NCBI RefSeq assembly: GCF_000169335.1 | Contig: NZ_AAXW01000021.1 | Location: forward strand, 35,175-67,174 | Length of the DNA: 32,000 bases | Source: Crocosphaera chwakensis CCY0110 | GTDB taxonomy: Bacteria > Cyanobacteriota > Cyanobacteriia > Cyanobacteriales > Microcystaceae | Direction of reading: 5' to 3' | Shown: positions 2,178 to 30,370 of the stretch, in pieces | Layout of the letters: every line of letters starts with the position of its first letter | Position numbering within the stretch: position 1 is the first letter of the stretch | Notes under the pieces: generated by a model | Told to the model about the DNA's origin: nothing | Database searches by the model: none | Seen by the model: only the letters and a program-made list of their open reading frames with translations | Position numbers and translations under genes: made by a program

Positions 2178-2230
2178 AGCCAAAAATTTAAAGTCTGTTG
2201 CAAGGAAAATTTTGAGGATTTAAAGGATCT

Positions 2231-3247
<1,017 letters not shown>

Positions 3248-3253
3248 TCATCA

Positions 3254-3295
3254 AAATGATAATCACTATTATACAACGAGAATGATTATTATTAT
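3254..3295. promoter_or_regulatory. Two tandem Fur/Zur-box-like operators upstream of hemB
   Basis: AAAATGATAATCACTATT (3254-3271) and GAGAATGATTATTATTAT (3278-3295) lie in the hemB / PEP-CTERM intergenic region. The segment is near-identical to the znuA upstream region at 11465-11508. Confidence 0.6.
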
Positions 3296-3298
3296 TTA

Positions 3299-4123: not shown

Positions 4124-4176
4124 CTGATTTTTACCTCTAATGACTTTAATAAGATTAAGTTGATAGACACAATTAA

Positions 4177-4220
4177 AATAATAATGATTATCATTTTAAT
4201 TGTGTGATAATCATTATTAT
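4177..4220. promoter_or_regulatory. Two Fur/Zur-box-like operators upstream of the PEP-CTERM gene
   Basis: AATGAT-T-ATCATT is a perfect palindrome (4183-4195). GTGATAATCATTAT lies at 4204-4217. Confidence 0.55.
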
Positions 4221-4240: not shown

Positions 4241-4345
4241 CCTGACTATATAGACCTAGCGATATTTGAGATCCCCGCTGTTCATCACCCTGAGCCAAAT
4301 CCCCATCAATTAAGAACTTTTGTCCAACATCAGCATGATGAATGA
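4241..4345 (+). pseudogene. Decayed 5' fragment of a paralogue of the flavoprotein gene at 11524
   Basis: CCTGACTATATAGACCTAGCGAT matches 11533-11555 (CCTAATTATATAGACCTAGCAAT). GAGATCCCCGCTGTTCATCACCCTGAGCCAAATCCCCATCAATTAAGAACTTTTGTCCAACATCAGCATGATGAA matches 11706-11785. About 150 nt between the two matches is missing, and in-frame stops are present. Confidence 0.6.
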
Positions 4346-6135: not shown

Positions 6136-6157
6136 AAAAATGATAATGATTCTCATT
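6136..6157. promoter_or_regulatory. Fur/Zur-box-like operator upstream of the porin gene
   Basis: AAAAATGATAATGATTCTCATT lies 21 nt upstream of the porin start. It overlaps the stop codon of the zur-like gene. Confidence 0.5.
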
Positions 6158-6500
6158 GTACTTGATTGTCTTGACATTGAGGGCATCGCCCAAAAAATTC
6201 TAAAGTATGATAGTAGACTTGGAAGTGATAAGTCTGCTCTAATCGTTCTTCTAAGTCATGGACAGGACACTCATTAATCACGAAAGATTGACCACAACTA
6301 ACACAATTTATGTGGTGATGATCGTGAGAAATTAAACTGTAAAGTGCTTCCCCACTGGTTAAAATTCGTGCTTTCACAGTTCCTTGAGTTTTTAAAGCTT
6401 CCAAGGCACGGTAAACTGTTGCTAGTCCTAAAGGCTGATCTCGATCTTTGAGTTCTGCATATAAGTTCTGGGCGGAAATAGCATAATTTAACGACTTGAG
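6153..6500 (-). pseudogene. zur: Fur-family (Zur-like) repressor, 3' portion, separated from its 5' end by an IS element
   Basis: The frame reads ...LKSLNYAISAQNLYAELKDRDQPLGLATVYRALEALKTQGTVKARILTSGEALYSLISHDHHHINCVSCGQSF...CPQCQ. This gives a winged-helix part plus HxHH and CxxC metal motifs. The frame stays open upstream of the track Met (6404) to about 6518, but no start codon or N-terminus lies there. The junction position is uncertain by about 15 nt. Confidence 0.75.
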
Positions 6501-6522
6501 TACCTGAACTTCAGTGCGTCAG

Positions 6523-6551
6523 TCCCTAGTCTCAGCGTAGCGGACTAGGGA
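6523..6551 (+). repeat. Subterminal hairpin of the IS (tnpA-proximal end)
   Basis: TCCCTAGTC-N11-GACTAGGGA is a perfect 9-bp stem. Confidence 0.6.
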
Positions 6552-6598
6552 AGGAAAGCACGACAATTTGAGGACTCAATGTCCGAAAAATTGTCAAA

Positions 6599-7009
6599 TT
6601 AACTTTTCGGAGCATCTTGGTTCTTGATATATTCTTTTAACTTTTCAATAGGTGCGCCACCAGAAGAAGTGACATAATAAGACTTAGACCAAAAAGAAAC
6701 TTTGTCTTTATAAAACTTAGTTACTTGTTCAGGAAAGTCTTTTTTCATGACTCTAGCTGTCGAACTTTTAAGACACCCTGCAACTGTAGAAATAGAGTTT
6801 TTAGGATGGAAATCTAATAAGATATGGACATGATCCATTTCACCCGAAAACTCTAGTAACTCACAATCCATTTTGCGAGATACTTGCCAAATCATTTCTC
6901 TTAATCGCTCTAGCATTAGGGCGGTTATTACTTTGCGTCTATAGTGAGTAACAAAAACAAAGTGTAACCGCACACTAAAAACACTATGTGACCCTTTTCT
7001 TGGTTTCAT
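6599..7009 (-). CDS. tnpA: IS200/IS605-family Y1 (HUH) transposase TnpA
   Basis: 136 aa. The HUH motif is in MDHVHILLDF, and the catalytic-Tyr region is SKSYYVTSSGGAP. Size and sequence are typical of the family. Confidence 0.9.
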   Translation of the reverse strand: MKPRKGSHSVFSVRLHFVFVTHYRRKVITALMLERLREMIWQVSRKMDCELLEFSGEMDHVHILLDFHPKNSISTVAGCLKSSTARVMKKDFPEQVTKFYKDKVSFWSKSYYVTSSGGAPIEKLKEYIKNQDAPKS

Positions 7010-7070
7010 CTTGACACCCTACAGGTAATTAGACTAAAATCATCATATCAGTTCTGTTGAGGTCGGCAAC

Positions 7071-8334
7071 ATGGCTACTAAAAGAATCACGTTTAGACTT
7101 TACCCAAATAAAGAACAAAATGAGAAACTTCATTATTGGAGACGTTTACACAAAGATTTATACAATGCTTGTGTAGTTAATCGAAAAACTCAATACAAAA
7201 AGTTTGGTAAATCCATTAATTACTTTGACCAACAAAACTCATTACCTGAGTTTAAAAAAGATTGGCCAGAATACAAAGACCTTGGTAGCCATGCCCTTCA
7301 AGCAACTGTAAAACGGGTTGATTTTGCTTTCCAACGTTTTTTCAAGATTAAATCAGGTTATCCGAAACTAAAGTCTTCAAGAAGATATAAAGGGTGGACT
7401 TATCCTGATAAAGCTGGTTGGGAAAATAGACAGTAATGGACATCATGGAAAGTTGACACTTTCTAATTTTGGAACAATAAAGATGAGGGGTAAAGCAAGA
7501 GATTGGGGAACACCAAATACTTGCACTATCATCTTTAAACAAGGAAAATGGTACGCTTCTGTTACTGTTAGTTGTGATCCAAAACGAGAAACAGGTAAAG
7601 AGGCTTGTGGTATCGATTTTGGGACTCATCATGCACTTGCTTTTGACGATGGCACTGTTATTGATAATCCTAGATTTCTCAAACAATCACAGGATAAAAT
7701 CAACAAAACAGCAAAGAAATCTAGAAAGAAACGTGCAGGAAAAAAGGGAGTAAAAGGGTCTAGAAGATGGAAAAAAGCTGTTAGAAAAATCGGTAAGATT
7801 CAATCTTTAGTTGGTCGTCAAAGACAAAACTGGCATCATCAAGTTTCCACACAAATAGTTAGCTGTAATAGCTTGGTGGCAACTGAGAAATTAAACCTAA
7901 AAGGAATGACCAAAAAAGCTAAAAGAGGTAGCAAAAGAAAACGTCAAAAGACTGGATTAAATCGGTCAATTCTTGACGTTGGAATTGGTAACTTAAAATC
8001 ATTAATAAAAAGCAAAGTTACCGAAGCAGGTGGGTTTTACATTGAGGTTCCTACTCGAAAAGTTAAGCCATCTCAGACTTGTCCTAATTGTGGTCATCAA
8101 AAGAAAAAGACATTAGCAGAACGCCAGCACAACTGCGAAAAGTGCCTTTATAGTTGCGACAGAGATGTTGCATCAGCCCAGGTGTGTTTAAACTGGGCAA
8201 GGGGGCAGGAACTGTCCTCTTTAGACGTAGAGTCGCCTAGCTCTACTTTATGCGGAAGCATGAGGCAACTAGGGGCGAAAAAGCACAACAATGCAAAGAA
8301 GCGTCAGAAACATCTAGCTCAACAAAGTGGCTAG
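7071..8334 (+). pseudogene. tnpB: TnpB (RuvC-like RNA-guided nuclease family), interrupted by a 1-nt frameshift near 7419-7425
   Basis: ORFs 7071-7436 and 7453-8334 are collinear halves of one gene. Switching frame at TGGGAAAATA gives ...YPDKAGW/KIDSNGHHGKLTLSNFGTIKMRGKA.... RuvC residues are in GIDFGTHH, VATEKLNLKGM and CDRDVASA. The Zn finger is CPNCG...CEKC. Confidence 0.8.
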
Positions 8335-8337
8335 ATG
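8150..8337 (+). ncRNA. Possible TnpB-associated omega/right-end RNA region
   Basis: Assigned by analogy only. In IS200/IS605 elements the guide-RNA scaffold overlaps the tnpB 3' end and runs to the right end. Hairpins are visible here, for example 8311-8337. The 5' boundary is not determined. Confidence 0.3.
8311..8337 (+). repeat. Subterminal hairpin of the IS (tnpB-proximal end)
   Basis: CATCTAGC-N11-GCTAGATG is a perfect 8-bp stem. It ends where the zur reading frame resumes. Confidence 0.6.
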
Positions 8338-8382
8338 TAGTTCATTAATTTGCGCTTGAGAACGAGTATATTTAGCTTTCAT
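8338..8382 (-). pseudogene. zur: Fur-family (Zur-like) repressor, 5' portion (first ~15 codons)
   Basis: The reverse strand from ATG 8382-8380 reads MKAKYTRSQAQINEL and then runs into the IS end. TRSQ..I..L is a typical Fur/Zur N-terminus. A Fur-box-like site lies about 100 nt upstream. Confidence 0.65.
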
Positions 8383-8484
8383 GATATTTTTACTTTCTAA
8401 GCAACGTGAGTTAGAAACTTTGGTAGTAACTAAAGGAACAATAGCTAGTAACTTGAGGCTAATTTTATTTATTAGGATTCTGTA

Positions 8485-8506
8485 GAATAATAATCATTAT
8501 CATTAT
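8485..8506. promoter_or_regulatory. Fur/Zur-box-like operator upstream of zur (autoregulation site)
   Basis: GAATAATAATCATTATCATTAT lies between the zur start (8382) and znuB. Confidence 0.5.
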
Positions 8507-10403: not shown

Positions 10404-11438
10404 TTAAGTATTTTGACAGGCTCTTGACAATGCCTCCAAATTACTCCGCATTACTTGAAAATAATATTGGGGATCGGTTTCCCCTGCCTCAAGAGGGTTA
10501 ATCGCTTCAAGAGATAGATTTAAGTCACTGGATATTTGCTCAATGCGCTTGTCTTCAATTCCTGGTTCAGTTAATAAAGCTTTAACAGAATGTTCCTCAG
10601 TTATTTGTTTTATTCGTTGGATATCTTGGGGAGTCATGCTCTCTTCAGGAATTTCTACTATTGCTTCTTGTTCGAGTCCGTAGCGTTGCGCTAGATAGGG
10701 AAAAGCATCGTGAAAAGTAATAAAGTTACAACCTTGAACGGGGGCTAATTTTTCTTTAAATTCATTATCTAGCTGTTGTAGTTGTTCAATATAAGCTTGA
10801 GCATTGCTACGATAGCTATCTGCATTACTGGGGTCAATTTCAATTAACCTATCTCTAATATTAGCGACCTGTTGTTGCGCTAAAACAGGATCTAACCAGA
10901 CGTGAGGATTTCCTTCTGGATGGTGATGTCCGTGTCCATGTTCATCATGTTTGTGTTCGTCATGTCCATGTTCATCATGTTTGTGTTCATCATGTCCATG
11001 TTCCCCTTCCATTGCTTCTATTCCTTCACTAGCATCAATTTGTTGAAGTTCAGAATTACCTGCATTGGCAACTAAATCTGATAGAAACGCTTCCATCCCC
11101 AAACCATTTTCTACTAAAACATCTGCTTGTGCTAACAGTTTTGCATCGTCTGGGGTAGCTTGATAGTCGTGAACTTCTGCACCAGGGGAAATCAAAATAT
11201 CGACTTGTCCGGTATCTCCAACTACAGCTTTAGTAAACAAATGAACCGGTAAGAAAGTAGTAACAATCTTGGGACCTGAACTTGTTTCGGGTGTGGAATC
11301 AGAACTGCTTGGAGGTGTGGGTTCTGTTCCACAAGCGAGCGCCATTAAACCAGTGACAGCAGTAATTACAAAGCGTTGTAAAGATGCCTTGGGACGAAGA
11401 CGATCGAGTACATAGAGAGATTCAGCAGTAAAACTCAT
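10404..11438 (-). CDS. znuA: Zinc-binding periplasmic lipoprotein (TroA/ZnuA family) with His-rich loop
   Basis: Lipobox LMALAC. The His/Asp/Glu-rich loop is EGEHGHDEHKHDEHGHDEHKHDEHGHGHHHPEGNPHVW, followed by a family-typical HDAFPY segment. Confidence 0.88.
   Translation of the reverse strand: MSFTAESLYVLDRLRPKASLQRFVITAVTGLMALACGTEPTPPSSSDSTPETSSGPKIVTTFLPVHLFTKAVVGDTGQVDILISPGAEVHDYQATPDDAKLLAQADVLVENGLGMEAFLSDLVANAGNSELQQIDASEGIEAMEGEHGHDEHKHDEHGHDEHKHDEHGHGHHHPEGNPHVWLDPVLAQQQVANIRDRLIEIDPSNADSYRSNAQAYIEQLQQLDNEFKEKLAPVQGCNFITFHDAFPYLAQRYGLEQEAIVEIPEESMTPQDIQRIKQITEEHSVKALLTEPGIEDKRIEQISSDLNLSLEAINPLEAGETDPQYYFQVMRSNLEALSRACQNT
10934..11004. repeat. 30-bp tandem repeat (about 2.3 units) encoding the ZnuA His-rich loop
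   Basis: GTCCATGTTCATCATGTTTGTGTTC(G/A)TCAT occurs at 10934-10963 and 10964-10993. A partial third unit starts at 10994. Confidence 0.85.
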
Positions 11439-11464
11439 GATGTTTAGTGGAGAACTGGTTCATT

Positions 11465-11508
11465 AAAATGATAACCATTATTATACAATGAGAATGATTA
11501 TCGTTAAT
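11465..11508. promoter_or_regulatory. Two Fur/Zur-box-like operators in the divergent znuA / flavoprotein intergenic region
   Basis: AAAATGATAACCATTATT (11465-11482) and GAGAATGATTATCGTTAAT (11490-11508). The segment is homologous to 3254-3295. Confidence 0.6.
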
Positions 11509-11523
11509 TTTAATTAATCCGCA

Positions 11524-12735
11524 GTGGCACTACCTAATTATATAGACCTAGCAATTGTTGGGGCAGGAGTTCAGGCTCTAACGTTAACCACCCATCTCTT
11601 ACAAAAACGTGCAAAGTATTATCATAAATTTTTAGCTTTTGATCCCAGTCAAACTTGGCTGAGTCAATGGCAGCAACAATTTGCAGCTCAACAAATTCCT
11701 TGTTTAAGATCCCCTGCGGTTCATCACCCAGATCCTAATCCCCATCAATTAAGAACCTTTGCTGAACATCGGCATCATGAACTGTTCCCTCCCTATGATA
11801 GACCAGGTACGAAGCTATTTCATGATTTTTGTGATGAAGTTATTCGTCGCTGGAAGTTAGAAGATAAAGTTTATCGGGGCAAAGTCGTAGACATTTTACC
11901 CATTAAACGTGCTTTGCATCCTCGGTTTCAATTGGTTTTAGATACGGAAGAAACCATTATGACTCGTAGAGTGGTATTGGCTACGGGAAGTGGGAAAATG
12001 CAGTTTCCTGACTGGGTAGAGAAGATTCCGCTCAATTATCCTTCAGAGACATTGTGTCATTCTCAACAGGTAAATCTCAACCAACTTAAGTTAACAGGAG
12101 AAAGGATATTAATTGTTGGTGGTGGTTTAAGTAGCGGACATTTAGCTAAAGGTGCAATAAATTTAGGTGCAACTGTTACTTTGATGACGAGAAAGCAGTT
12201 ACAAGAAAAAATTTTTGATGCTGATCCTGGTTGGTTAGGGCCAAAATATCTTAAAGACTTTCACGCTGAAACTGATTGGTATGTTCGTTATCAGCAAATA
12301 CAGCAAGCACGTAATGGTGGTTCAATGACTCCTGAAATGATGCTGCAATTAAGAAAGGCATCTCATGAAGGTAAAATACAAATTGAAGAATGCTGTCAAG
12401 TTAGAGAGGCACATTGGCAAAATAATCTTTGGCAGGTTGGTTGTCACGATGGAAACAAGCATCAGTTTGATCGTATTTGGTTAGCTACTGGTACAACATT
12501 CAACACAAAAGAGCATCCCCTATTGCAAAACGTACTGGAGACTTATCCGACAGAAATCGTTAACGGTTTGCCGGTACTAGATGAACATTTACGTCTGCCT
12601 AAGTCCAACTTTTTTATTATGGGTGGTTTAACTGCTTTACAAATTGGCCCTGTTGCTAGAAATATTCATGGTGGGAAAATGGCTTGTCGACGTATTGTAC
12701 CAGCCATTATTAAACCTAGTTTGGCCATTGGATGA
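11524..12735 (+). CDS. FAD/NAD(P)-binding oxidoreductase with two Rossmann motifs
   Basis: GTG start. The N-terminal motif is DLAIVGAGVQALT (GxGxxA) and the second dinucleotide motif is ILIVGGGLSSGHLA. It is divergent from znuA and shares the operator region. Confidence 0.75.
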   Translation: MALPNYIDLAIVGAGVQALTLTTHLLQKRAKYYHKFLAFDPSQTWLSQWQQQFAAQQIPCLRSPAVHHPDPNPHQLRTFAEHRHHELFPPYDRPGTKLFHDFCDEVIRRWKLEDKVYRGKVVDILPIKRALHPRFQLVLDTEETIMTRRVVLATGSGKMQFPDWVEKIPLNYPSETLCHSQQVNLNQLKLTGERILIVGGGLSSGHLAKGAINLGATVTLMTRKQLQEKIFDADPGWLGPKYLKDFHAETDWYVRYQQIQQARNGGSMTPEMMLQLRKASHEGKIQIEECCQVREAHWQNNLWQVGCHDGNKHQFDRIWLATGTTFNTKEHPLLQNVLETYPTEIVNGLPVLDEHLRLPKSNFFIMGGLTALQIGPVARNIHGGKMACRRIVPAIIKPSLAIG

Positions 12736-23414: not shown

Positions 23415-23450
23415 AATTCCTGATGATTGACCTTTAGGGAGCAAGCATCG

Positions 23451-23813
23451 ATGCCAACAGTTAATCTCAAAAACTTCATCATTATTTCTCTTGCAGATAC
23501 TGCAAGACGAGCCGGATTCGGCGATATGCCGGCTACGACAGATTATCAAAAGAAGAAACAGTCCCTTCAGGAACGTAACATATTAAAACGCTTACTAGAG
23601 ATGGTTAAAAATCGTAAGCCAAGCAAGATAGTTGAGGTAAACGACCTTTATCTATCCCCGCAATTTACCATGTTAATTGCGGATGTTTATAGTCAGATAG
23701 AAGGATACAGCAACGATGTCTATTTCTGTCAGAACCTCGCTGAATGCGAAAACCGACTTTCCTTTAATGGAGACATAGAGGCTCTATATAAACAGGTTCT
23801 AATCCACCTGTAA
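23451..23813 (+). CDS. Hypothetical protein
   Basis: 120 aa from ATG 23451. The track start TTG 23427 lies 12 nt after the motif. A GGGAG SD-like sequence lies 12 nt upstream of the ATG. Confidence 0.5.
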   Translation: MPTVNLKNFIIISLADTARRAGFGDMPATTDYQKKKQSLQERNILKRLLEMVKNRKPSKIVEVNDLYLSPQFTMLIADVYSQIEGYSNDVYFCQNLAECENRLSFNGDIEALYKQVLIHL

Positions 23814-23840
23814 ACCTTACTAGACATGGATTTGCACTAC

Positions 23841-23886
23841 CCGCAGCAACTACTATTTTGGTTATAAATTATAGCCCCTGCTGCGG
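23841..23886 (+). repeat. 46-nt inverted-repeat element, copy A
   Basis: CCGCAGCA-N30-TGCTGCGG, 27 nt after stop 23813. Confidence 0.8.
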
Positions 23887-23949
23887 ATCGATAACTGGTG
23901 TTTTCTACTCTTACATTTATTATAATGTTCTCAAGCATTATTTTGAATT

Positions 23950-24783
23950 ATGAAACTATGGACTATTATTAAACGCTTTTTACATCTAGAACCCTGCAAG
24001 GTTCTAGATGATAAGGAAGATACTTCGTATTTAGCTCTGTACCATCGAGGAGTAACCCTCTTTGAATCAGAAAGCTACAAAGAAGCCCTTGAGATTTTCA
24101 ACACCCTTCTTGAAACTTATCCTAACGAAGAAAGAATCTGGTTTAGCAAAGCCCTTACCCTTTACGAATTAGAAAACTACGAAGAAAGCATACTTGCTTA
24201 CGATGCCTTGCTGAACATCAACCCCATCCACGAAGAAGCATGGAACAACAGGGGATATGCGTTATCTCTTCTAAGACGCTATCGAGAAGCTATCCTATCT
24301 TACAATAAAGCGCTAGAGATTAATCCCAATTGTGACAAGGCTTTATTCAATATGGCATTAGCTTACCATCACTTATCTAATTACCAAAAGGCTGTCAATT
24401 GCTATAGTCGTTATGTTGAGATGATTCCAGATGTAGGAGCAGCTTGGAACAATAGAGGTTATGATCTTCTTCGACTAAAGCGGTATCATGAGGCTATTTT
24501 ATCTTACAACAAAGCCATTGAATTAATACCCAATTCCCATGAACCGTTTCTGAATAAAGCCTTGGCTCTACATTTTCTAGGTAAGCACGAAGAAGCCTTA
24601 CTCTTTTGCGATAAAGGTCTAGCAATATGTCCTAACTACGCCCAAGCTTGGTACAATCGAGGCATCTTTCTACATCATCTGAATCGACATAAAGAAGCTG
24701 TTTTTTCGTACAATAAAGCGTTAGCACTAGAGCCAGAAAACGAAGATGCTCAAATAAACAGAGACATCGACTATACTCTGTAA
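23950..24783 (+). CDS. Tetratricopeptide-repeat (TPR) protein
   Basis: 277 aa. About seven 34-aa repeats show the W..G/A..Y..A...Y..AL...P pattern, for example EAWNNRGYALSLLRRYREAILSYNKALEINPN. Confidence 0.8.
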   Translation: MKLWTIIKRFLHLEPCKVLDDKEDTSYLALYHRGVTLFESESYKEALEIFNTLLETYPNEERIWFSKALTLYELENYEESILAYDALLNINPIHEEAWNNRGYALSLLRRYREAILSYNKALEINPNCDKALFNMALAYHHLSNYQKAVNCYSRYVEMIPDVGAAWNNRGYDLLRLKRYHEAILSYNKAIELIPNSHEPFLNKALALHFLGKHEEALLFCDKGLAICPNYAQAWYNRGIFLHHLNRHKEAVFSYNKALALEPENEDAQINRDIDYTL

Positions 24784-24810
24784 CCATTATCCTATCTGGG
24801 TTTTACCCAC

Positions 24811-24856
24811 CCGCAGCAACTGCTATTTCGGCTATAGTTTACGGACTCTGCTGCGG
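24811..24856 (+). repeat. 46-nt inverted-repeat element, copy B
   Basis: CCGCAGCA-N30-TGCTGCGG, 27 nt after stop 24783. The flanks are homologous to copy A. The variant motif ACTAGCGT follows at 24864-24871. Confidence 0.8.
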
Positions 24857-24900
24857 ATCACCAACTAGCGTTTATTAAGGGGCTGTTTATCATTATAGAA

Positions 24901-25229
24901 ATGCCCCAACAACTTAGCCTATTGCAAGATCCAGAAATCCCAGAAATCATAGACGTCTTATTAAATCGAGAAGACTGCGTTTTGGCCGTCAGCATATCTG
25001 CAGGAAAAGACAGTCAGGCTATGCTTAACTGGCTGGCAGATCAACGAAAACGCCGAGGATGGCGTTGTCAAGTCCTAGCGATTCATGCAGATTAGCTGAC
25101 CTCAATGATTTGACCAATGCGATCGCTTACAATAAAAAGGTCTATGGCGAACTCGTAGAACTTGAAAAAGAGTCGGGCTGGACATTTCAGCAAAACCGAG
25201 CATTAAGGTCACTCACTGATATTAAATAA
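24901..25229 (+). pseudogene. PAPS-reductase-like (PP-loop ATPase) gene with an internal deletion and frameshift
   Basis: The N-terminal 64 aa contain the PP-loop SISAGKDS and end at TAG 25093-25095. A different frame (25098-25229) reads DLNDLTNAIAYNKKVYGELVELEKESGWTFQQNRALRSLTDIK*, which looks like a C-terminal remnant. The central part of the family fold is missing. Confidence 0.55.
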
Positions 25230-25241
25230 GAAGGAACCATA

Positions 25242-25679
25242 ATGACACTAATCCAATTATCAAAACGAGTATTTTACATAGCAGCGAACTTGGCAACTAT
25301 ATCAAGCTTGCTAATTTGCGTACTCATCCTTAGTTGCGACGTAGCATTTATAATAGCGACTCCAATTATCAATGGCATTGATGCAATGATTGGAATAGAA
25401 CAGCCATCAGAGAGTTTATGGCAGGTTATCTGCTCTCAGAATTATTTGCCGCCGTTAGAGGGACTGGATTTATTTATGGGAGTGGTAGAAGACAAAGTAG
25501 TAAGCGATATGTTGCATATAAGAGGGATTAGTAATGTCTCACTTGCTATCTCAGGAGAGATTTTCTTCGTAACTAAAGGGTGTTTTCATTTGCTATTAGC
25601 CGCCTTGTGTTGGGCTTCGATTGGACTTTATGGTTTCGGTTTTATCTGGTTAGTAGATAGGTTTGATCATTCTCCTTAA
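25242..25679 (+). CDS. Hypothetical multi-pass membrane protein
   Basis: 145 aa. An AAGGAA SD lies upstream, and there are several hydrophobic helices. Confidence 0.55.
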   Translation: MTLIQLSKRVFYIAANLATISSLLICVLILSCDVAFIIATPIINGIDAMIGIEQPSESLWQVICSQNYLPPLEGLDLFMGVVEDKVVSDMLHIRGISNVSLAISGEIFFVTKGCFHLLLAALCWASIGLYGFGFIWLVDRFDHSP

Positions 25680-25702
25680 CAACCTTGCAAAGCCATTCGA
25701 TT

Positions 25703-25725
25703 AAGACCTACGGGTCTTTTTTTTT
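25703..25725 (+). terminator. Intrinsic terminator
   Basis: AAGACC-TACG-GGTCTT followed by a T-tract. GCTAGCGC follows immediately. Confidence 0.75.
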
Positions 25726-25733
25726 GCTAGCGC
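25726..25733 (+). promoter_or_regulatory. Island motif GCTAGCGC, copy 7
   Basis: Exact 8-mer. It abuts the terminator T-tract and lies 34 nt before ATG 25768. Confidence 0.6.
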
Positions 25734-25767
25734 AGAACCCTTAGATGTTAATCAAGAGGTAGTCTCG

Positions 25768-26220
25768 ATGAACTATCAAGAAAGGTTGCAAAAAATCATA
25801 ACTGAGCTAGAGAATGATGTACGATGCGATCGCATGGGCAAACGCCCTCTACATTTTGCTATTGCATTAAAAGACGTCATAGAAAGACGAGCAGATTTTG
25901 CCGTTTTAACCTATTTACCAAAGGAGTTCAATTTAGTAAACGGCTTTTCTCTCGCCGAGACAATTCTTTTCGTGAGAAATTACTACGGCGAGATGTCGTC
26001 ACATTTTGCTTTGAAAACAAGATTCAGGGACTGGAAATGGCTATTTTCCCTGCGTTTCGACGTAATGAGCTATGGATTTATCCGTGATACTGTCTGGAGC
26101 AGTATCATCGCTCTTATCATCGATGATGACCGGTTTACATTCTCTGATCTAGAGAAGGGACTGTTGCGGGTTTCTGTCCAGTGTGATGATTCCGACACTA
26201 ATTTCTCTATAAATAGCTAG
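25768..26220 (+). CDS. Hypothetical protein
   Basis: 150 aa. An AGAGG SD lies 8 nt upstream. Preferred over the overlapping 25824-26087 ORF. Confidence 0.55.
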   Translation: MNYQERLQKIITELENDVRCDRMGKRPLHFAIALKDVIERRADFAVLTYLPKEFNLVNGFSLAETILFVRNYYGEMSSHFALKTRFRDWKWLFSLRFDVMSYGFIRDTVWSSIIALIIDDDRFTFSDLEKGLLRVSVQCDDSDTNFSINS

Positions 26221-26296
26221 AACTAACCCTTGTCGCTAGAGCGTGTTCTCTTGACTACAATTTCTAAGAATAAACAAGGAACCCCCAAAGTCGAAC

Positions 26297-26395
26297 ATGG
26301 GCTGCGTTTGGCCAGTTATATTAGTAATGCTAATTTTCTGGGCGATCGCATTTATTTTCAAAGGAAGATTAAGAAGAATGGAAGAGACGGGTTAA
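26297..26395 (+). CDS. Candidate 32-aa single-TM micro-protein (alternative to track ORF 26230-26451)
   Basis: MGCVWPVILVMLIFWAIAFIFKGRLRRMEETG is a hydrophobic helix with a basic tail. A degenerate motif GCTAGaGCG (26235-26243) lies 53 nt upstream. The coding frame in this interval is unresolved. Confidence 0.25.
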   Translation: MGCVWPVILVMLIFWAIAFIFKGRLRRMEETG

Positions 26396-26524
26396 GGTGT
26401 TTTTCGATGAACTTTTATGAAAAAAGTTTGATGGCACTCACAATGCTCTAAGTCACCGAAATCTCATCGGCAGAAGAAAGACATTGAGCGATCAGCTTCT
26501 TTTAGGTTGGTAAGAATATCTATC

Positions 26525-26532
26525 GCTAGCGC
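26525..26532 (+). promoter_or_regulatory. Island motif GCTAGCGC, copy 8
   Basis: Exact 8-mer within the palindromic CGCTAGCG, 46 nt before ATG 26579. Confidence 0.55.
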
Positions 26533-26578
26533 TCGTTAGGGGGAATAAATTGCCAAACGAGTAAAGGACTGTAAACAA

Positions 26579-26989
26579 ATGCCTAGAGAAGTTATCCATG
26601 ACGTAGATCGCCCCGACATCAACGGCGTTAAGCCCAAGATGCAAGACATCGCAGATAGTCTACTTGGAGCACTCCCAAAACTTCCCTTTTCATCCTTGAA
26701 ATGTAACGACAACTTAATGTCGTCAATTCACCTGAAAGCAAGTTTTGATGACCGAGCAGAGTGGTCAAATGGGATTTTTGAGAACTCGCTGTACTTCATG
26801 TTTAGTATCCATCCCAAGAAAGGAGAACGATACTACCAAGAGGGCGCACCGGTTAGCGTCGAAATCAACAACAAATCCTACAAAATTCCTACAAAGTTCA
26901 GAAAATACACGGGAACCCCTGAGAAGGCGATCGCCAAAATTGTTACTTGGATTGATAAAGCACAATCGGAGATAGAGCAACAAAGATAA
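26579..26989 (+). CDS. Hypothetical protein
   Basis: 136 aa. An AAAGGA SD-like sequence lies upstream. Overlapping ORFs in other frames are judged spurious. Confidence 0.55.
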   Translation: MPREVIHDVDRPDINGVKPKMQDIADSLLGALPKLPFSSLKCNDNLMSSIHLKASFDDRAEWSNGIFENSLYFMFSIHPKKGERYYQEGAPVSVEINNKSYKIPTKFRKYTGTPEKAIAKIVTWIDKAQSEIEQQR

Positions 26990-27042
26990 CACTTCCTAGA
27001 GAGAACGACCTTTATACCAGCAGGATGATAGCAGAGTCTATC

Positions 27043-27050
27043 GCTAGCGC
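27043..27050 (+). promoter_or_regulatory. Island motif GCTAGCGC, copy 9
   Basis: Exact 8-mer, followed by GGATT as in copy 10, 38 nt before ATG 27089. Confidence 0.6.
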
Positions 27051-27088
27051 GGATTCTATTAGAAAACAAAATTCGAGGAACATTCACA

Positions 27089-27277
27089 ATGAACACTAAT
27101 ACAGAATATTTCTATGACAGTTTCGCTCAACCTTTTGAATGGGACGAACACGGCGCTATGGCAGTCTATCGAGAAACTGATATCGCTTTTGAAGAAGCAC
27201 TAGAAAGCTGGTGTGAATCAGATGAAACAACAGAACCCACCGATCTCGATAAAGAAATAGCCCACCCACCATTTTAA
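27089..27277 (+). CDS. Small acidic hypothetical protein
   Basis: 62 aa, rich in Asp and Glu. A GAGGA SD lies 10 nt upstream. Confidence 0.55.
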   Translation: MNTNTEYFYDSFAQPFEWDEHGAMAVYRETDIAFEEALESWCESDETTEPTDLDKEIAHPPF

Positions 27278-27285
27278 GGCAAAAA

Positions 27286-27314
27286 AGGAAGAGAAACGCC
27301 TCTTCCTTTTTTTT
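27286..27314 (+). terminator. Intrinsic terminator
   Basis: AGGAAGAG-AAACGC-CTCTTCCT followed by T8. Confidence 0.8.
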
Positions 27315-27315
27315 A

Positions 27316-27323
27316 GCTAGCGC
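27316..27323 (+). promoter_or_regulatory. Island motif GCTAGCGC, copy 10
   Basis: Exact 8-mer, 1 nt after the T-tract and 42 nt before ATG 27366 (nrdB). Confidence 0.6.
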
Positions 27324-27365
27324 GGATTAAAAGAACAATTAGTAAAAATTTTACTCATAAAACTA

Positions 27366-28409
27366 ATGACCTTCACCGAAATAAAACCAAGTCCAATCTT
27401 CAACCCTACCGGAAAGGACAACAAAGAAAATAGACACCTCTGGGGCGGTGACACCACCAACGTCATCAACCTTAATGAAACCCGTTACGGATGGGCCCGG
27501 TCTATTTATCAAACTATGAGGGAATCCTTCTGGGTCCCTCAGCGAACCGACCTGTCCCAAGATAAATTAGATTACGCTAACCTCATTCCAGGTGAACGTA
27601 GAGCGTTGAAGGGTATTCTAAGTTACCTCAATTTCCTAGACTCGGTACAAGTCGCAAACATCCCCGAACTCAGCCGGTATATCACAGCGCCGGAAGCTAG
27701 GATGTGCCTTGCCGAGCAAACATCACAAGAAGCGATGCACGGGGAGACTTATCAGTACATTACTGAGAGCATAATCCCAGAAAATGAGCAGCATGAAGTT
27801 TACGACTTCTGGAAGCAGGATCTTTTACTCCATGAGAGATGTGAATTTATCGCCGGTTATTACCAAAACCTTGCTAATAACCCCACCGGAGAAAACTATT
27901 ATATGGCGCTGATTGGAGACTATCTCCTAGAAGGATTGCTATTCTATCAAGGCTTCTTGTTCTTCTACAATCTTGCCTCCAGTCAACGGCTTGCGGGCTG
28001 TGCCAAACTCATCAAGCAAATCAACATGGATGAATTGACTCATGTGAGCTTATACCAAAAGCTTATCACAGAGGCTACGACAAAGTTCTCCTATTCTGAG
28101 GATGAAATCACAGAGTTATTCCATACAACGGTTGAACGGGAGATTGAGTGGACTAACCACATCTTCGATGGACAAATTCTAGGGGTTAGCAAAGCAAGTA
28201 CCGAAGCTTATACGAAGTATTTAGCTAACTTACGCCTAAAAGCGATCGGTATCCCTGCCATTTACCCCAAAATAGAGAATCCTTATGCCCATTTAGACTG
28301 GGCTGATTTCAAAGGAATCGGCAAATCAAAGGCTGCTTTCTTTGAAACAGAGGTCACAGGTTACGCCCAACCTACTGCCGTCAAGGGGTGGGACAAACTC
28401 AGGGTATGA
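27366..28409 (+). CDS. nrdB: Ribonucleotide reductase class I small (R2) subunit
   Basis: 347 aa. The di-metal ligand pattern is LNFLDSV (Asp), EAMHGETY (E-x-x-H, with the radical Tyr 4 residues later), LLEGLLFY (Glu) and MDELTHV (E-x-x-H). Confidence 0.88.
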   Translation: MTFTEIKPSPIFNPTGKDNKENRHLWGGDTTNVINLNETRYGWARSIYQTMRESFWVPQRTDLSQDKLDYANLIPGERRALKGILSYLNFLDSVQVANIPELSRYITAPEARMCLAEQTSQEAMHGETYQYITESIIPENEQHEVYDFWKQDLLLHERCEFIAGYYQNLANNPTGENYYMALIGDYLLEGLLFYQGFLFFYNLASSQRLAGCAKLIKQINMDELTHVSLYQKLITEATTKFSYSEDEITELFHTTVEREIEWTNHIFDGQILGVSKASTEAYTKYLANLRLKAIGIPAIYPKIENPYAHLDWADFKGIGKSKAAFFETEVTGYAQPTAVKGWDKLRV

Positions 28410-28424
28410 CTGGCTTTGAGCCTT

Positions 28425-28470
28425 CCGCAGCAAGTCCAATATTTACTATAGATAATTGAGGTTGCTGCGG
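28425..28470 (+). repeat. 46-nt inverted-repeat element, copy C
   Basis: CCGCAGCA(A)-N-(T)TGCTGCGG, 15 nt after the nrdB stop. Confidence 0.8.
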
Positions 28471-28524
28471 ATCTTTTAGGAATTAGCGTCCATTGTATTC
28501 GACGTTTATTGATGGACGAAAGTA

Positions 28525-28590
28525 ATGGCTCAAGTTGAATGGCTAGAAACCATACTCTCGGAGTTAGCCACTGTGATATCAAAAAATTAG
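28525..28590 (+). CDS. Candidate 21-aa micro-ORF (or cassette remnant)
   Basis: MAQVEWLETILSELATVISKN*. The degenerate motif TTAGCGTC (28483-28490) lies 34 nt upstream, which is the canonical spacing. A 19-bp perfect hairpin follows directly. Confidence 0.2.
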   Translation: MAQVEWLETILSELATVISKN

Positions 28591-28591
28591 C

Positions 28592-28639
28592 AATAGGCAT
28601 CATAAAGAGAGGCTCGGTCTTCTCTTTATGATGCCTATT
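28592..28639 (+). other. Long perfect hairpin (19-bp stem, 10-nt loop) without a T-tract
   Basis: AATAGGCATCATAAAGAGA-GGCTCGGTCT-TCTCTTTATGATGCCTATT. It occupies the position taken by intrinsic terminators in front of modules E to G. Confidence 0.6.
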
Positions 28640-28773
28640 CATCGTCGAAATCTAACACAAAAAAATAGCTAAGTTTACGGCATTATAAATCAAGCTCTAT
28701 TCCACTCTGGATAAGGATTATAACCTTCCGCAGCAGTGACTATTTTTCTTATATAAAATCGTGGTTGCTGCGG
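28638..28773 (+). repeat. 136-nt island module, copy D (leader plus 46-nt hairpin at 28728-28773)
   Basis: TTCATCGTCGAAATCTAACAC...CTGGATAAGGATTATAACCTT followed by CCGCAGCA-N30-TGCTGCGG. The degenerate motif GCTAGTGC lies 18 nt later (28792-28799). The downstream ORF has decayed. Confidence 0.8.
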
Positions 28774-28906
28774 GTAAACTTCGGGCTGTAGGCTAGTGCT
28801 TAGAATGAAGATGCTTACACCCAATAGTAGAACAAATGGGCTAACGAATATCGTGATCTCCATTTAAAAATACTAAAAACTCTTCCCTAAGATAAACCTC
28901 CCAAAA

Positions 28907-28933
28907 AGAGAAGACATAGCTTCTCTTTTTTTT
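28907..28933 (+). terminator. Intrinsic terminator
   Basis: AGAGAAG-ACATAG-CTTCTCT followed by T8. It is near-identical to terminator 30143-30169 apart from loop differences. Confidence 0.75.
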
Positions 28934-28938
28934 ACCGA

Positions 28939-29074
28939 ATCATCGTCGAAATCTAGCACGAAAAAATGGCTAAGTTTACGGCATTATAAATCAAGCTCTA
29001 TTCTAGTCTGGATAAGGATTGTAACCATCCGCAGCCATAGCTATTTTTCTTATAGATAATAGAGGTTGCTGCGG
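28939..29074 (+). repeat. 136-nt island module, copy E (hairpin at 29029-29074)
   Basis: Same leader as copy D. The hairpin is CCGCAGCC-N30-TGCTGCGG, with one arm mismatch. GCTAGCGC follows 17 nt later. Confidence 0.8.
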
Positions 29075-29091
29075 ATGATAATCAATTTTCC

Positions 29092-29099
29092 GCTAGCGC
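29092..29099 (+). promoter_or_regulatory. Island motif GCTAGCGC, copy 11
   Basis: Exact 8-mer, 17 nt after hairpin E and 33 nt before ATG 29133. Confidence 0.6.
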
Positions 29100-29132
29100 A
29101 ATTAAATATGATGTTCCAAACCTACAGCACAA

Positions 29133-29366
29133 ATGAACAACTACGAAAAACTTCGAGATTTAGTCGGTAATTGCAATCGCCTAGAAGAACAATTCTTCAA
29201 CCGTCTAATTCAGGATGATGTGCCTCTAGAACTCAAACAAATTTGGAATAAGTGGTCGGCGGCGCAAGCCGCGCATCGAGATTTTCAAGGACAGATGCTA
29301 GGGACGAATCTCCACGTAAATGAAAATCAAAAAGAGACGAATAAATATACTACTAATTTACTTTAA
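29133..29366 (+). CDS. Small hypothetical protein, paralogue 1 of a duplicated cassette gene
   Basis: 77 aa, MNNYEKLRDLVGNCNRLEEQFFNRLIQDDVPLELKQIWNKWSAA.... It is about 80% identical over the first ~57 residues (hand alignment) to ORF 29907-30119. Confidence 0.6.
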   Translation: MNNYEKLRDLVGNCNRLEEQFFNRLIQDDVPLELKQIWNKWSAAQAAHRDFQGQMLGTNLHVNENQKETNKYTTNLL

Positions 29367-29413
29367 ACTAGCGTTTATTCATCATGAAAAAAATCGCCGT
29401 TTAAATTAGAAAT

Positions 29414-29668
29414 ATGAATGAAACTGCCATTCCCGAACGTTATCAACCTCTGGGCGAAATTATATCCCGAAAATACATGGGTGCTTTACGTTATTTAGTG
29501 ATCAAACCCATCTATTTTGAAGATAAACCATTCAATTCAATGAGTACCGTTGTGATCGCTTCGTCTCCTGATGAGGCGATTAGGAAAACATTCTTTCATC
29601 GATATACATGGGCGTACAGTACCGAGAATGTACCCCACACAACTGCAACTGAAATCGGCAATGCTTAA
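29414..29668 (+). CDS. Small hypothetical protein
   Basis: 84 aa. The variant motif AACTAGCGTTTATT (29366-29379, core ACTAGCGT at 29367-29374) lies 39 nt upstream. The same 14-mer precedes ORF 24901. Confidence 0.5.
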   Translation: MNETAIPERYQPLGEIISRKYMGALRYLVIKPIYFEDKPFNSMSTVVIASSPDEAIRKTFFHRYTWAYSTENVPHTTATEIGNA

Positions 29669-29682
29669 TTCAATAATCTAAT

Positions 29683-29708
29683 CCTAGCAAACGCTAGGTT
29701 TTTTTTTT
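29683..29708 (+). terminator. Intrinsic terminator
   Basis: CCTAGC-AAAC-GCTAGG followed by T10. Confidence 0.75.
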
Positions 29709-29713
29709 GCAAA

Positions 29714-29849
29714 ATCATCGTCGAAATCCAGCACGAAAAACTGGCTAAGTTTAGGGCATTATGAAACAGCCTCTATCTCTGTCTGGATAAGGATTATAAC
29801 CTTCCGCAGCAGTGACTATTTTTCTTATACAAAATTGTGGTTGCTGCGG
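29714..29849 (+). repeat. 136-nt island module, copy F (hairpin at 29804-29849)
   Basis: ATCATCGTCGAAATCCAGCACGAAAAACTGGCTAAGTTTAGGGC... followed by CCGCAGCA-N30-TGCTGCGG. Confidence 0.8.
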
Positions 29850-29866
29850 ATGATAATCGATTTTCC

Positions 29867-29874
29867 GCTAGCGC
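29867..29874 (+). promoter_or_regulatory. Island motif GCTAGCGC, copy 12
   Basis: Exact 8-mer, 17 nt after hairpin F and 32 nt before ATG 29907. Confidence 0.6.
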
Positions 29875-29906
29875 ATCTGAGGATGATATTCAAAACCATA
29901 ACGCAC

Positions 29907-30119
29907 ATGAGCAACTACGAAAAACTTCGAGATTTAGTCAGTGAGTGCAATCGTCTAGAGGAAAATTTCTTCGACCGTCTAATTCAAGAAGACGTACCCC
30001 TAGAACTGAAAATGATTTGGAACGAGTGGTCGGCGGCGCGAACTAAGCATAGAACCTTTCAAGGACAAATGCTTGGGTTCAACATCCTAGACACCGAAAC
30101 TCACAACGAAGACGAATAA
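29907..30119 (+). CDS. Small hypothetical protein, paralogue 2 of the duplicated cassette gene
   Basis: 70 aa from ATG 29907 (MSNYEKLRDLVSECNRLEENFF...). The track ORF start at 29835 would read through hairpin F and the motif, so it is rejected. Confidence 0.6.
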   Translation: MSNYEKLRDLVSECNRLEENFFDRLIQEDVPLELKMIWNEWSAARTKHRTFQGQMLGFNILDTETHNEDE

Positions 30120-30142
30120 TAAAGAGATATTCTTTTAGAAAT

Positions 30143-30169
30143 GAGAAGCTATGTCTTCTCTTTTTTTTT
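30143..30169 (+). terminator. Intrinsic terminator
   Basis: GAGAAG-CTATGT-CTTCTC followed by T9. Confidence 0.75.
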
Positions 30170-30174
30170 GCAAA

Positions 30175-30310
30175 ATCATCGTCGAAATCCAGCACGAAAA
30201 AATGGCTAAGTTCAGGGCATTACAAACCAAGCTCTATTCTAGTCTGGATGAGGGTTATAACCTTCCGCAGCAATTACTATTTTTCTTATATAAAATCGTG
30301 GTTGCTGCGG
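30175..30310 (+). repeat. 136-nt island module, copy G (hairpin at 30265-30310)
   Basis: Same leader plus CCGCAGCA-N30-TGCTGCGG, directly upstream of nrdA. Confidence 0.8.
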
Positions 30311-30329
30311 GTAAAAATTGATTTAAAAA

Positions 30330-30337
30330 GCTAGCGC
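30330..30337 (+). promoter_or_regulatory. Island motif GCTAGCGC, copy 13
   Basis: Exact 8-mer, 19 nt after hairpin G and 33 nt before ATG 30371 (nrdA). Confidence 0.6.
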
Positions 30338-30370
30338 TCTCCAAACTGAAAATCTACCAATTTAAACCCT

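Follow-up and report, generated by a model that had tools for sequence, protein, structure and literature searches.

A directional 46-bp palindrome with invariant arms, repeated between the genes of a conjugative, linear-chromosome-type replicon family of cyanobacteria

The window analysed is a stretch of 32,000 nucleotides of Crocosphaera chwakensis CCY0110 (contig NZ_AAXW01000021.1, positions 35,175 to 67,174 of the forward strand). Its first 13 kb are ordinary chromosome, with a zinc-uptake cluster, hemB, a porin gene and an IS200/IS605 copy. Beyond approximately 13.25 kb almost all substantial open reading frames (ORFs) are located on the + strand, including those for a Sno-type methylase-helicase, DnaN, a TPR protein, the small and large subunits of ribonucleotide reductase (RNR) and many small proteins of unknown function. 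The intergenic regions of this part contain copies of a 46-bp palindrome with the structure CCGCAGCA-N30-TGCTGCGG, two GC-rich 8-bp arms around an AT-rich interior. The element is real, non-random and selectively maintained, and its context holds more interest than the palindrome by itself.

A pattern search for CCGCAGCA-N30-TGCTGCGG, allowing up to two mismatches, returned exactly seven matches in the window, all on the + strand, with a chance expectation of 0.00 in 100 dinucleotide-preserving shuffles. These are the seven copies of the original prediction, made earlier from the sequence of this window, and the ORF positions agree with its claim that all are intergenic. No copy was found in the first 13 kb with either the pattern search or a covariance model, and a single arm (CCGCAGCA or TGCTGCGG alone) was found nowhere else in the window. 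Copy 1 (23841–23886) is located 27 nt past the stop codon of ORF 23427–23813 and 63 nt before the ATG of the TPR gene. Copy 2 (24811–24856) lies 27 nt past the TPR-gene stop and is followed by ACTAGCGT at 24864–24871 and an ATG at 24901, while copy 3 (28425–28470) lies 15 nt past the stop of the RNR small-subunit gene, with ATTAGCGT at 28482–28489; the predicted distance of 15–27 nt from a stop codon was thus correct for these three copies. Orthologues of copy 3 are present at 11060 in locus L067 (ATCC 51142) and at 2234 in locus L058.

Copies 4 to 7 are each embedded in a repeated intergenic unit of about 197 nt, consisting of a terminator hairpin with a T-run, a conserved leader of approximately 95 nt, the palindrome and the 8-nt motif GCTAGCGC. 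The reference copy of this unit (28926–29122, + strand) contains copy 5 (29029–29074), followed by GCTAGCGC at 29092 and an ATG at 29133. Copy 4 (28728–28773) is found within the unit at 28625–28821, with GCTAGTGC at 28792–28799, copy 6 (29804–29849) within that at 29701–29897, with GCTAGCGC at 29867 and an ATG at 29907, and copy 7 (30265–30310) within that at 30162–30358, with GCTAGCGC at 30330 and the ATG of the RNR large-subunit gene at 30371. The units form repeat family D1 (72–84% identity) and were aligned with 11 additional units from Cyanothece sp. BG0011 and ATCC 51142. All seven palindromes are on the + strand. No T-run follows any copy; a terminator scan flagged the adjoining canonical terminators and none of the copies, which agrees with the earlier statement that these are not ordinary intrinsic terminators.

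The interior is itself a decayed palindrome with near-invariant pairs C13–G34, T16–A31, T19–A28 and T23–A24, and the 46 bp are almost perfectly palindromic in some BG0011 copies. The CTATTT and TATA core that had been described in the interior were both seen. The arms are identical in all window copies, apart from the one deviation already noted, an A8 to C change in copy 5 (29029). The length of exactly 46 nt applies to the window and does not extend to relatives, where elements of 47, 48, 49 and 51 nt also occur (interiors including 31–33 nt). A spacing constraint deduced from constant length is suggested only faintly, because in the orthologous interiors about three gap columns were expected from the indel rate of the flanks and none was seen. 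A flank of 13 nt, GGnTTTGAGnnnT (GGnTTTGAG), is present on one side of the palindrome only and forms with it a directional unit of about 60 nt. In copy 3 the flank reads GGCTTTGAGCCTT (28412–28424, + strand, repeat family D2) and holds a −35-like TTGAGC; it precedes the other window copies at 23828, 24798, 28715, 29016, 29791 and 30252.

A total of 41 sites was found in 186 kb of one replicon family, which covers sequence of the linear chromosome of Crocosphaera subtropica (Cyanothece) ATCC 51142, of BG0011 and SU3, of two metagenomic relatives and of the window. A covariance model built from 37 distinct copies, a check that had been proposed with the original prediction, was run on these 186 kb and found only the known 41 sites. 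The sites are intergenic, with at most the last codons of a gene overlapped, as is the case for one copy. A scan for arms plus core in one genome per species (185,579 species) recovered only BG0011 (15 strict copies, spread over four small contigs), a contig of ‘unicellular cyanobacterium SU3’ and two chance matches. The 56 matches in the viral collection (IMG/VR) were rejected as single chance palindromes in GC-rich DNA without the AT-rich interior. No matches to the element were found in the JGI metagenomes, a megablast of the module against phage and plasmid sequences gave none, and literature searches on the motif and on two-barrel polymerases of conjugative elements returned nothing relevant. 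The hundreds of scattered copies by which a generic repetitive extragenic palindromic (REP) sequence would be recognized were therefore not encountered: the element is specific to one conjugative, linear-chromosome-type replicon family.

The conservation of the element was assessed on orthologous copies of the window, BG0011 and ATCC 51142. Differences were counted at 1 of 160 arm positions, at 61 of 300 positions in the interiors and at 305 of 1212 in the flanking intergenic sequence. Conservation of the arms exceeds that of the interior about 30-fold (Fisher p = 2e-11), and the arms are under purifying selection at the sequence level. Identical arms were also found in a relative in which a neighbouring polymerase, discussed below, is 69% identical; the interiors there measure 32 and 33 nt. 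The only arm change is that of one distant relative, locus L071, with an RNR small subunit 60% identical. Its single palindrome, CCGCAGGAGA-N31-TCTCCTGCGG, directly follows the flank, retained as GCTTTGAAGCAC, and keeps its pairing with changed inner arm pairs (CCGCAG-GAGA...TCTC-CTGCGG), the change being symmetric. None of the three genomes contains an empty orthologous site and no target-site duplications are present at the element ends, which indicates that the copies are old, positionally stable and not recently mobile.

Covariation beyond chance was not observed within the palindrome. Zero compensatory pairs were detected in 15 full units with RNAalifold; among the 37 distinct copies 78.2% of the cells were paired, versus 78.5% after shuffling, with covariation scores of 0.066 and 0.072 respectively. 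Column composition alone thus accounts for the stem pairing in this shuffle control. The arm mismatches of copy 5, of L064 at 1927 and of L077 at 14889 are all uncompensated, compensatory arm changes, sought as had been advised, number 0 within the clade, and nothing relevant for the element was present in Rfam at E ≤ 1. The arms are conserved as sequence without compensatory change, which is the ground on which the original prediction itself would drop a purely structural element.

The palindrome is directional. At all 41 sites one strand receives a covariance-model score about 20 bits above that of the other (for copy 1, 59.1 bits on the + strand and 42.3 on the − strand), and conservation reaches at least 90% at A15 and T18 but not at their mirror partners 32 and 29. 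A −10-like hexamer occupies palindrome positions 14–19, beginning at copy start + 13 in every copy. It reads AATATT in copy 3 (28438–28443, + strand), TATTTT in copies 1 and 4–7 and TATTTC in copy 2. In element orientation a hexamer with A2 and T6 is present at these positions in 32 of 40 copies, and its variants (TATTTT, TATATT, AATATT, GATAAT, TATAAT) resemble the variation of −10 boxes. A conserved T25-A26 follows seven nt downstream, and a TTGnnn or TTnnnA hexamer lies 16–18 bp upstream; about a third of the copies have TTGAGC, TTGAGG or TTGAAG as −35-like sequence (4–5 of 6 positions). Reversed copies retain the −10-like hexamer in the direction of the element, the gene-direction strand reading TGTTTT. 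Followed in element direction, 29 of 40 copies next reach a co-oriented ORF start, 19 of them within 150 nt. Since units 4–7 follow a canonical terminator, a promoter is needed there.

The motif GCTAGCGC occurs exactly at 13 sites of the window between 13258 and 30337 (13258, 17790, 20394, 21780, 23076, 23407, 25726, 26525, 27043, 27316, 29092, 29867 and 30330), all on the + strand and all past 13.2 kb, with 0.38 expected. Its distance to the start codon is mostly 33–46 nt, and several sites touch the T-run of the previous gene's terminator. Strand-specific counts elsewhere are 10 and 8 in two loci of ATCC 51142 (L067 and L075) and 6 and 4 in distant relatives (L071 and L077). The palindromes are found in one-direction gene arrays in which most genes have GCTAGCGC ahead of them, and a GCTAGCGC-like motif follows 24 of 31 palindrome copies at 8–26 nt. 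The prediction that each window copy has the motif 7–19 nt behind it was correct for six of the seven (three exact, three with one or two mismatches) and failed for copy 1, behind which nothing recognizable was found. Given the spacing of 8–26 nt, palindrome and GCTAGCGC are not one composite site. The GCTAGCGC pattern is also present in a distant relative with a single variant palindrome, so the 8-mer is older and wider than the palindrome, which expanded within the ATCC 51142/BG0011 clade. As a −35 or −10 box of the host RNA polymerase (RNAP) the motif was rejected, since no partner hexamer recurs consistently downstream of it; it resembles a replicon-specific gene-start signal, possibly a promoter or a 5'-end motif.

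The nearest relative of the RNR small subunit (93% identity) is encoded on CP000807 of ATCC 51142 (a 429,701-bp record), the linear chromosome of that strain (PMC4674748), which was sampled in about 45 kb of its 430 kb. A syntenic region of 21 kb contains six palindrome copies and 10 GCTAGCGC, all on one strand, and runs on into ParA and ParB. Approximately 85 kb away, five further copies are located beside genes for a relaxase, a NikA-like protein and components resembling a type IV secretion system (T4SS); the replicon therefore has a conjugation module. The GCTAGCGC arrays of both sampled CP000807 regions are on the same physical strand and point to the relaxase-proximal region, where the position of the origin of transfer (oriT) and the transfer polarity are taken from gene order alone. 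BG0011 has a syntenic region at 77–92% identity and more copies on three other small contigs, which encode a topoisomerase, DUF5895, TerD, HNH and IS elements and a membrane-protein array.

Arms that remain unchanged while their surroundings drift make a shared regulatory site most likely, rather than a terminator, a REP sequence or a structured RNA. The explanation that we favour, with a probability of roughly 35%, is that the element would be a σ70-type promoter whose −10 box and start site are bracketed by invariant operator half-sites for a putative factor encoded on the replicon. The flank would contribute the weak −35-like TTGnnn ahead of the palindrome, the left palindrome half the −10-like hexamer (cTATnTT, positions 14–19), and the conserved central TTATA the start site, at about A26. 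This would place the 8-bp arms, as two half-sites, around −25 to −18 and +14 to +21, with −10 box and start symmetrically between them, and binding of the factor would switch the set of promoters in a one-direction array together. Such switching may be likened to that by the IncP global repressors on their dispersed palindromic operators. Extrusion of a cruciform, with the AT-rich centre clamped by the GC arms, could be an alternative or contributing switch. Most copies point at the next gene; from the reversed ones, about a quarter, the transcripts would be antisense or divergent. That the element acts as a promoter, where transcription would start and that a binding factor exists are deductions from the sequence, as is any identity of such a factor. 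Of the four candidates offered originally, half-sites of a dimeric protein around a −10-like box fit best, with the difference that the best-placed hexamer is CTATTTT at positions 14–19 and not TATAAAAT, the box named at that time, which would correspond to the start-site region.

Several observations weigh against a promoter with operator half-sites. The −35-like sequence is weak in the repeated-unit copies (TTATAA or ATTATA, 3 of 6 positions) and lost in some orthologues (TTTGAG to TTAGAG), and a generic promoter scan picked none of these sites. An AT-rich palindrome yields −10-like hexamers on its other strand as well, as it does in many copies, and part of the promoter likeness could thus be a by-product. 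The half-sites are 38 bp apart from centre to centre (about 3.6 helical turns), which is unusual for a simple dimer, and a rigid dimer would not tolerate the existing interiors of 31–33 nt, as a hairpin would. About a quarter of the copies point away from neighbouring genes, 3–7 nt from a terminator T-run, an adjacency that a promoter does not explain. The mismatch bias and stabler sense-strand hairpin described below are not predicted by a purely double-stranded site either.

The palindrome could also act as a hairpin in the gene-sense RNA, its GC-clamped base being recognized by a specific RNA-binding protein or nuclease. It would then punctuate the arrays, by forming 3' ends or backing up termination, by processing, or by protecting the ends of mRNAs, and we regard this as possible, though the odds are against it. 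All window copies fold well as RNA (z −2.3 to −6.8). Inner-stem mismatches in gene orientation are G.T rather than A.C in a ratio of 45:15 overall (30:12 with the flank upstream, 15:3 for the reversed element), the sense RNA hairpin is stabler than the antisense one in 24 of 30 copies, and no G+T excess exists in the background, where the sense-strand fraction is 0.45–0.50 versus 0.58 in the interiors. The strand-bias test gives a misleading 37:44 when copies are oriented by their interior and 40:14 by gene direction. The bias favours folding of the gene-sense strand, as RNA or as lagging-strand template, and is what remains in favour of the RNA stem-loop originally suggested, which received no covariation beyond shuffles and no Rfam match. 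A hairpin would be indifferent to interior length as long as the arms are constant, copies 1–3 take the place of a terminator hairpin between stop codon and GCTAGCGC, and L071 keeps its hairpin despite the changed inner arm pairs, a symmetric change that is, however, equally expected of a dimer operator. Independence is lacking in the G.T statistics, since the copies represent few lineages derived from a small number of founders; the copies following a stop codon have the opposite G.T/A.C bias. About a third of the inner-stem cells are unpaired, the pairing is no better than column composition provides, arm mismatches remain without compensation, a U-tract is lacking, and the one-sided flank and the A15/T18 asymmetry are left unexplained by a hairpin.

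Folding of the DNA itself, as a single-stranded DNA (ssDNA) hairpin formed during transfer or lagging-strand synthesis and read by an enzyme of the replicon, is unlikely in our judgement. Plasmid priming signals are hairpins with sequence-specific stems, such as ssiA and ssiB of RSF1010, and the element could be imagined as a priming site or ssDNA promoter, or as a place where a QDE-1-like polymerase is loaded or blocked. The tolerance for interior length combined with an invariant stem base fits recognition of such a hairpin, the element is confined to a replicon with relaxase, NikA-like and T4SS-like genes and a two-barrel polymerase, and the arrays containing it all point to the putative oriT, a layout that has been reported of leading regions that are transcribed from the transferred strand (PMC11541004). 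Under the oriT orientation deduced from gene order, the better-paired strand is the gene-sense strand and not the transferred one; the spacing to GCTAGCGC varies between 8 and 26 nt, covariation is absent, and a stem of 23 bp cannot contain a −35 and a −10 box as Frpo folds do. The ssDNA-type promoter of the original prediction is accordingly improbable in the Frpo form. Still less probable is an architectural or segregation site, in which the arms would be bound by a ParB/KorB-like protein, the AT-rich interior would bend in a centromere-like complex and transcription would be affected only secondarily. N15 and IncP plasmids have dispersed palindromes as centromere or operator sites, and the copies studied here are likewise dispersed, invariant, palindromic and replicon-specific; ParA and ParB genes are located 3.3 kb past the five-copy cluster in ATCC 51142, and a gene for an actin-like ParM homologue adjoins the transfer genes in relatives. 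Known parS and KorB sites, however, are contiguous palindromes of 13–16 bp and not 8-bp arms split by 30 bp, and directionality, the one-sided flank and the association with gene starts would not be predicted. We give the least credit to a functionless relic of a miniature mobile or REP-like element that spread in both orientations with a preference for terminator T-runs. The varied contexts, the occurrence of both orientations, the at least seven different terminators with a copy 3–7 nt from the T-run, the copy overlapping the last codons of a gene, the TPR gene between two copies where BG0011 has one, and the IS200/IS605 and IS607-like genes in the same loci could be read in this way. Old selfish copies should, however, have decayed in their arms as well as in their interiors; empty orthologous sites and target duplications are absent, the end hairpins of the insertion sequences (ISs) are unrelated, and the element was not found outside the replicon family.

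A comparison with known systems leads to a similar picture. The O_A sites of KorA and O_B sites of KorB on RK2 are invariant, dispersed palindromes, some of them over a −10 box, which tie many operons to one regulator. Being invariant, replicon-specific, dispersed and overlapping with a −10-like box, the element is closest to these IncP sites in its presumed working. O_A and O_B are contiguous palindromes of 12–13 bp, whereas the element consists of two 8-bp arms 30 bp apart and is directional with a one-sided flank. REP sequences and bacterial interspersed mosaic elements (BIMEs), some of which have roles in mRNA stability and protein binding, are in enterobacteria and pseudomonads also short intergenic imperfect palindromes with a sequence-conserved stem, occurring in both orientations and often after genes or terminators. 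In form, the REP/BIME-like or miniature mobile element of the original prediction is therefore recognizable, while copy number and distribution speak against it: tens of copies on one replicon instead of hundreds genome-wide. The element furthermore lacks the GTAG 5' tetranucleotide (its flank being GGnTTTGAG), is twice the usual length with an AT-rich 30-nt interior and is tied to a gene-start motif. A gene for a REP-associated tyrosine transposase (RAYT), for which a search had been recommended, was absent from the part of the replicon sampled; the only Y1 transposases encountered are those of ordinary IS200/IS605 copies that have tnpB as partner gene.

Cruciform extrusion is favoured when GC-rich outer arms surround an AT-rich centre, as they do here. 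As in supercoil-dependent cruciform promoters, the −10 box and the predicted start would be inside the extruding region; cruciform control requires no specific arm sequence, in contrast to the invariant arms found here. The phage N4 virion-RNAP promoters have a 5–7-bp stem and a 3-nt loop in the template strand at a fixed distance from +1. The shared features are a private, non-canonical polymerase on the replicon and, ahead of genes, a hairpin whose stem is sequence-specific, while the element differs in its longer stem, larger loop, favoured sense strand and variable distance to the next motif. The Frpo/ssi promoters have in common with the element a conjugative replicon, arrays pointing at a (here putative) oriT and a hairpin upstream of genes (PMC11541004). 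Frpo is a long fold of the transferred strand, the stem of which holds the −35, −10 and UP elements (PMC11541004). The stem of the element is at most 23 bp, its −35-like motif lies outside, and the better hairpin forms on the non-transferred strand.

Other candidates were tried and rejected. A miniature inverted-repeat transposable element does not match the filled orthologous sites without target duplication. Integron attC sites, which carry core sites R'' and R' (RYYYAAC ... GTTRRRY), were considered because the TPR gene sits between two copies; the element has the invariant arms CCGCAGCA/TGCTGCGG and no core sites, and no integrase was present in the annotated loci. The duplication at the TPR locus extends about 30 nt past the palindrome into the end of the upstream gene, and looks like ordinary recombination. 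A connection with the IS200/IS605 copy of the window or with the tnpB/IS607-like genes of BG0011 was dismissed, given unrelated end hairpins, the absence of lone arms and the ISs having their own ends. An upstream mini-hairpin, GGCT-TTG-AGCC and variants, seemed to covary by eye and is present in only a subset of the copies, and the leader with palindrome, taken as a structured RNA of about 150 nt, has no covarying pairs. The mapped origin of the linear chromosome, at 373.5 kb, is far from both copy-bearing regions, which disposes of an association with the replication origin.

Outside the window, the relaxase gene on CP000807 is adjoined by cce_4975 (L075, 10001–13597), annotated as a ‘hypothetical’ protein of 1198 aa. 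An orthologue is encoded in BG0011 (L060, unitig_62) and relatives in L077 and L079. The family is large, cyanobacterial and without Pfam annotation, with the invariant motifs DFDGD, RxPxxNSN and FKGRKG. A structure model (mean pLDDT 85.8) gave QDE-1 (E = 3e-12), plant RDR2 (likewise in the range of E ~1e-12) and a phage single-chain RNAP as best PDB matches in Foldseek; large subunits of multisubunit RNAPs were weaker matches. On the basis of this model, the cce_4975 family is a predicted QDE-1-like single-chain two-barrel polymerase, widespread in cyanobacterial plasmids and chromosomes. The position of the polymerase beside relaxase and NikA is kept in relatives at 69% and 64% identity, and the locus of a 51% homologue contains no GCTAGCGC at all. 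No evidence directly linking the polymerase to GCTAGCGC or the hairpins was found in these loci. A private polymerase would naturally explain both a replicon-specific 8-mer before genes and invariant hairpins. Palindrome and GCTAGCGC would then be the cis-signals of the private expression system of a conjugative cyanobacterial replicon, with the polymerase initiating at GCTAGCGC and the hairpins loading, blocking or priming it, a scenario that we hold to be improbable. In that scenario the QDE-1-like polymerase may be delivered to the recipient in the manner of conjugative primases, and would initiate on the incoming strand before each gene of a one-direction leading array of about 100 kb.

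Some further features of the gene arrays were recorded. The TPR gene (23950–24783) is bracketed by palindrome copies 1 and 2 (region 23808–24873). Both copies align to one BG0011 copy, and in each case the alignment takes in some 30 nt of upstream sequence with the stop codon of the preceding gene; ATCC 51142 has no TPR gene at this position. The locus is a gene gain with a duplication of about 110 nt at the palindrome. The ORFs at 24901–25229 (64 and 56 aa, with a weak PP-loop ATPase match) correspond to the two ends of one 301-aa ORF of BG0011, the greater part of which lacks a counterpart in the window, and the PP-loop-like gene appears to be disrupted in the window by an internal deletion. 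Two tandem paralogous small genes, 29117–29335 and 29891–30109 (77 and 70 aa, 77% DNA identity), each have their own unit of about 197 nt upstream, and a related two-repeat protein precedes the RNR small-subunit gene in L071; these paralogues could be regulators. The RNR large-subunit gene is called as two ORFs in ATCC 51142 (L067 13498–15948, about 286 + 444 aa) and in the distant relative (L071 3220–5685, about 287 + 424 aa), with a gap of approximately 255–330 nt, and the window stops before this point. The split in both suggests a conserved intervening sequence, an intron or similar, and not an error. In BG0011 (L057, unitig_122, oriented 2215–3977) two palindrome copies 171 nt apart are found upstream of an apparent truncated IS607-type tnpA, recognized by eye (MKLSDYAKKAGISYRTAWKWWKQG...), followed by tnpB; this IS seems to have landed beside the palindromes and not to use them as ends.

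In the chromosomal part of the window, an AT-rich palindromic box, TAAAATAATAATGATTATCATT and variants, is present in four copies (4174–4195, 6136–6157, 8483–8504 and 11484–11505) adjoining the ZnuA, ABC-3 and CobW-like genes and hemB. These boxes look like Zur/Fur-type operators of a zinc regulon. Between two of them lies the IS200/IS605 element (approximately 6400–8500), with tnpA (Y1) at 6599–7009 on the − strand and tnpB at 7453–8334 on the + strand; its end hairpin, TCCCTAGTC/GACTAGGGA, bears no relation to the 46-bp palindrome. Two pairs of direct repeats of 80–84% identity, about 8 kb apart (3181–3303 with 11393–11515, and 4273–4342 with 11712–11781), suggest paralogous gene starts or upstream regions.

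The linear chromosome of ATCC 51142 has so far been regarded chiefly as an accessory for metabolism. Should the arms be an operator, a regulon exists on this chromosome and its relatives that covers replication and nucleotide supply, including RNR; the 46-bp sequence would then be a probe with which to isolate its regulator and, for a diazotrophic model cyanobacterium, a compact promoter that can be controlled. A private expression system, if true, would make this the first conjugative element to possess a non-canonical RNA polymerase and a promoter code of its own. The context was less expected than the palindrome: transfer genes, arrays running toward a putative oriT, a strand-specific 8-mer that is wider than the palindrome-bearing clade and a QDE-1-like polymerase. 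Taken together, these features suggest that the ‘chromosome’ is, or once was, a conjugative element of very large size whose expression signals are unusual.

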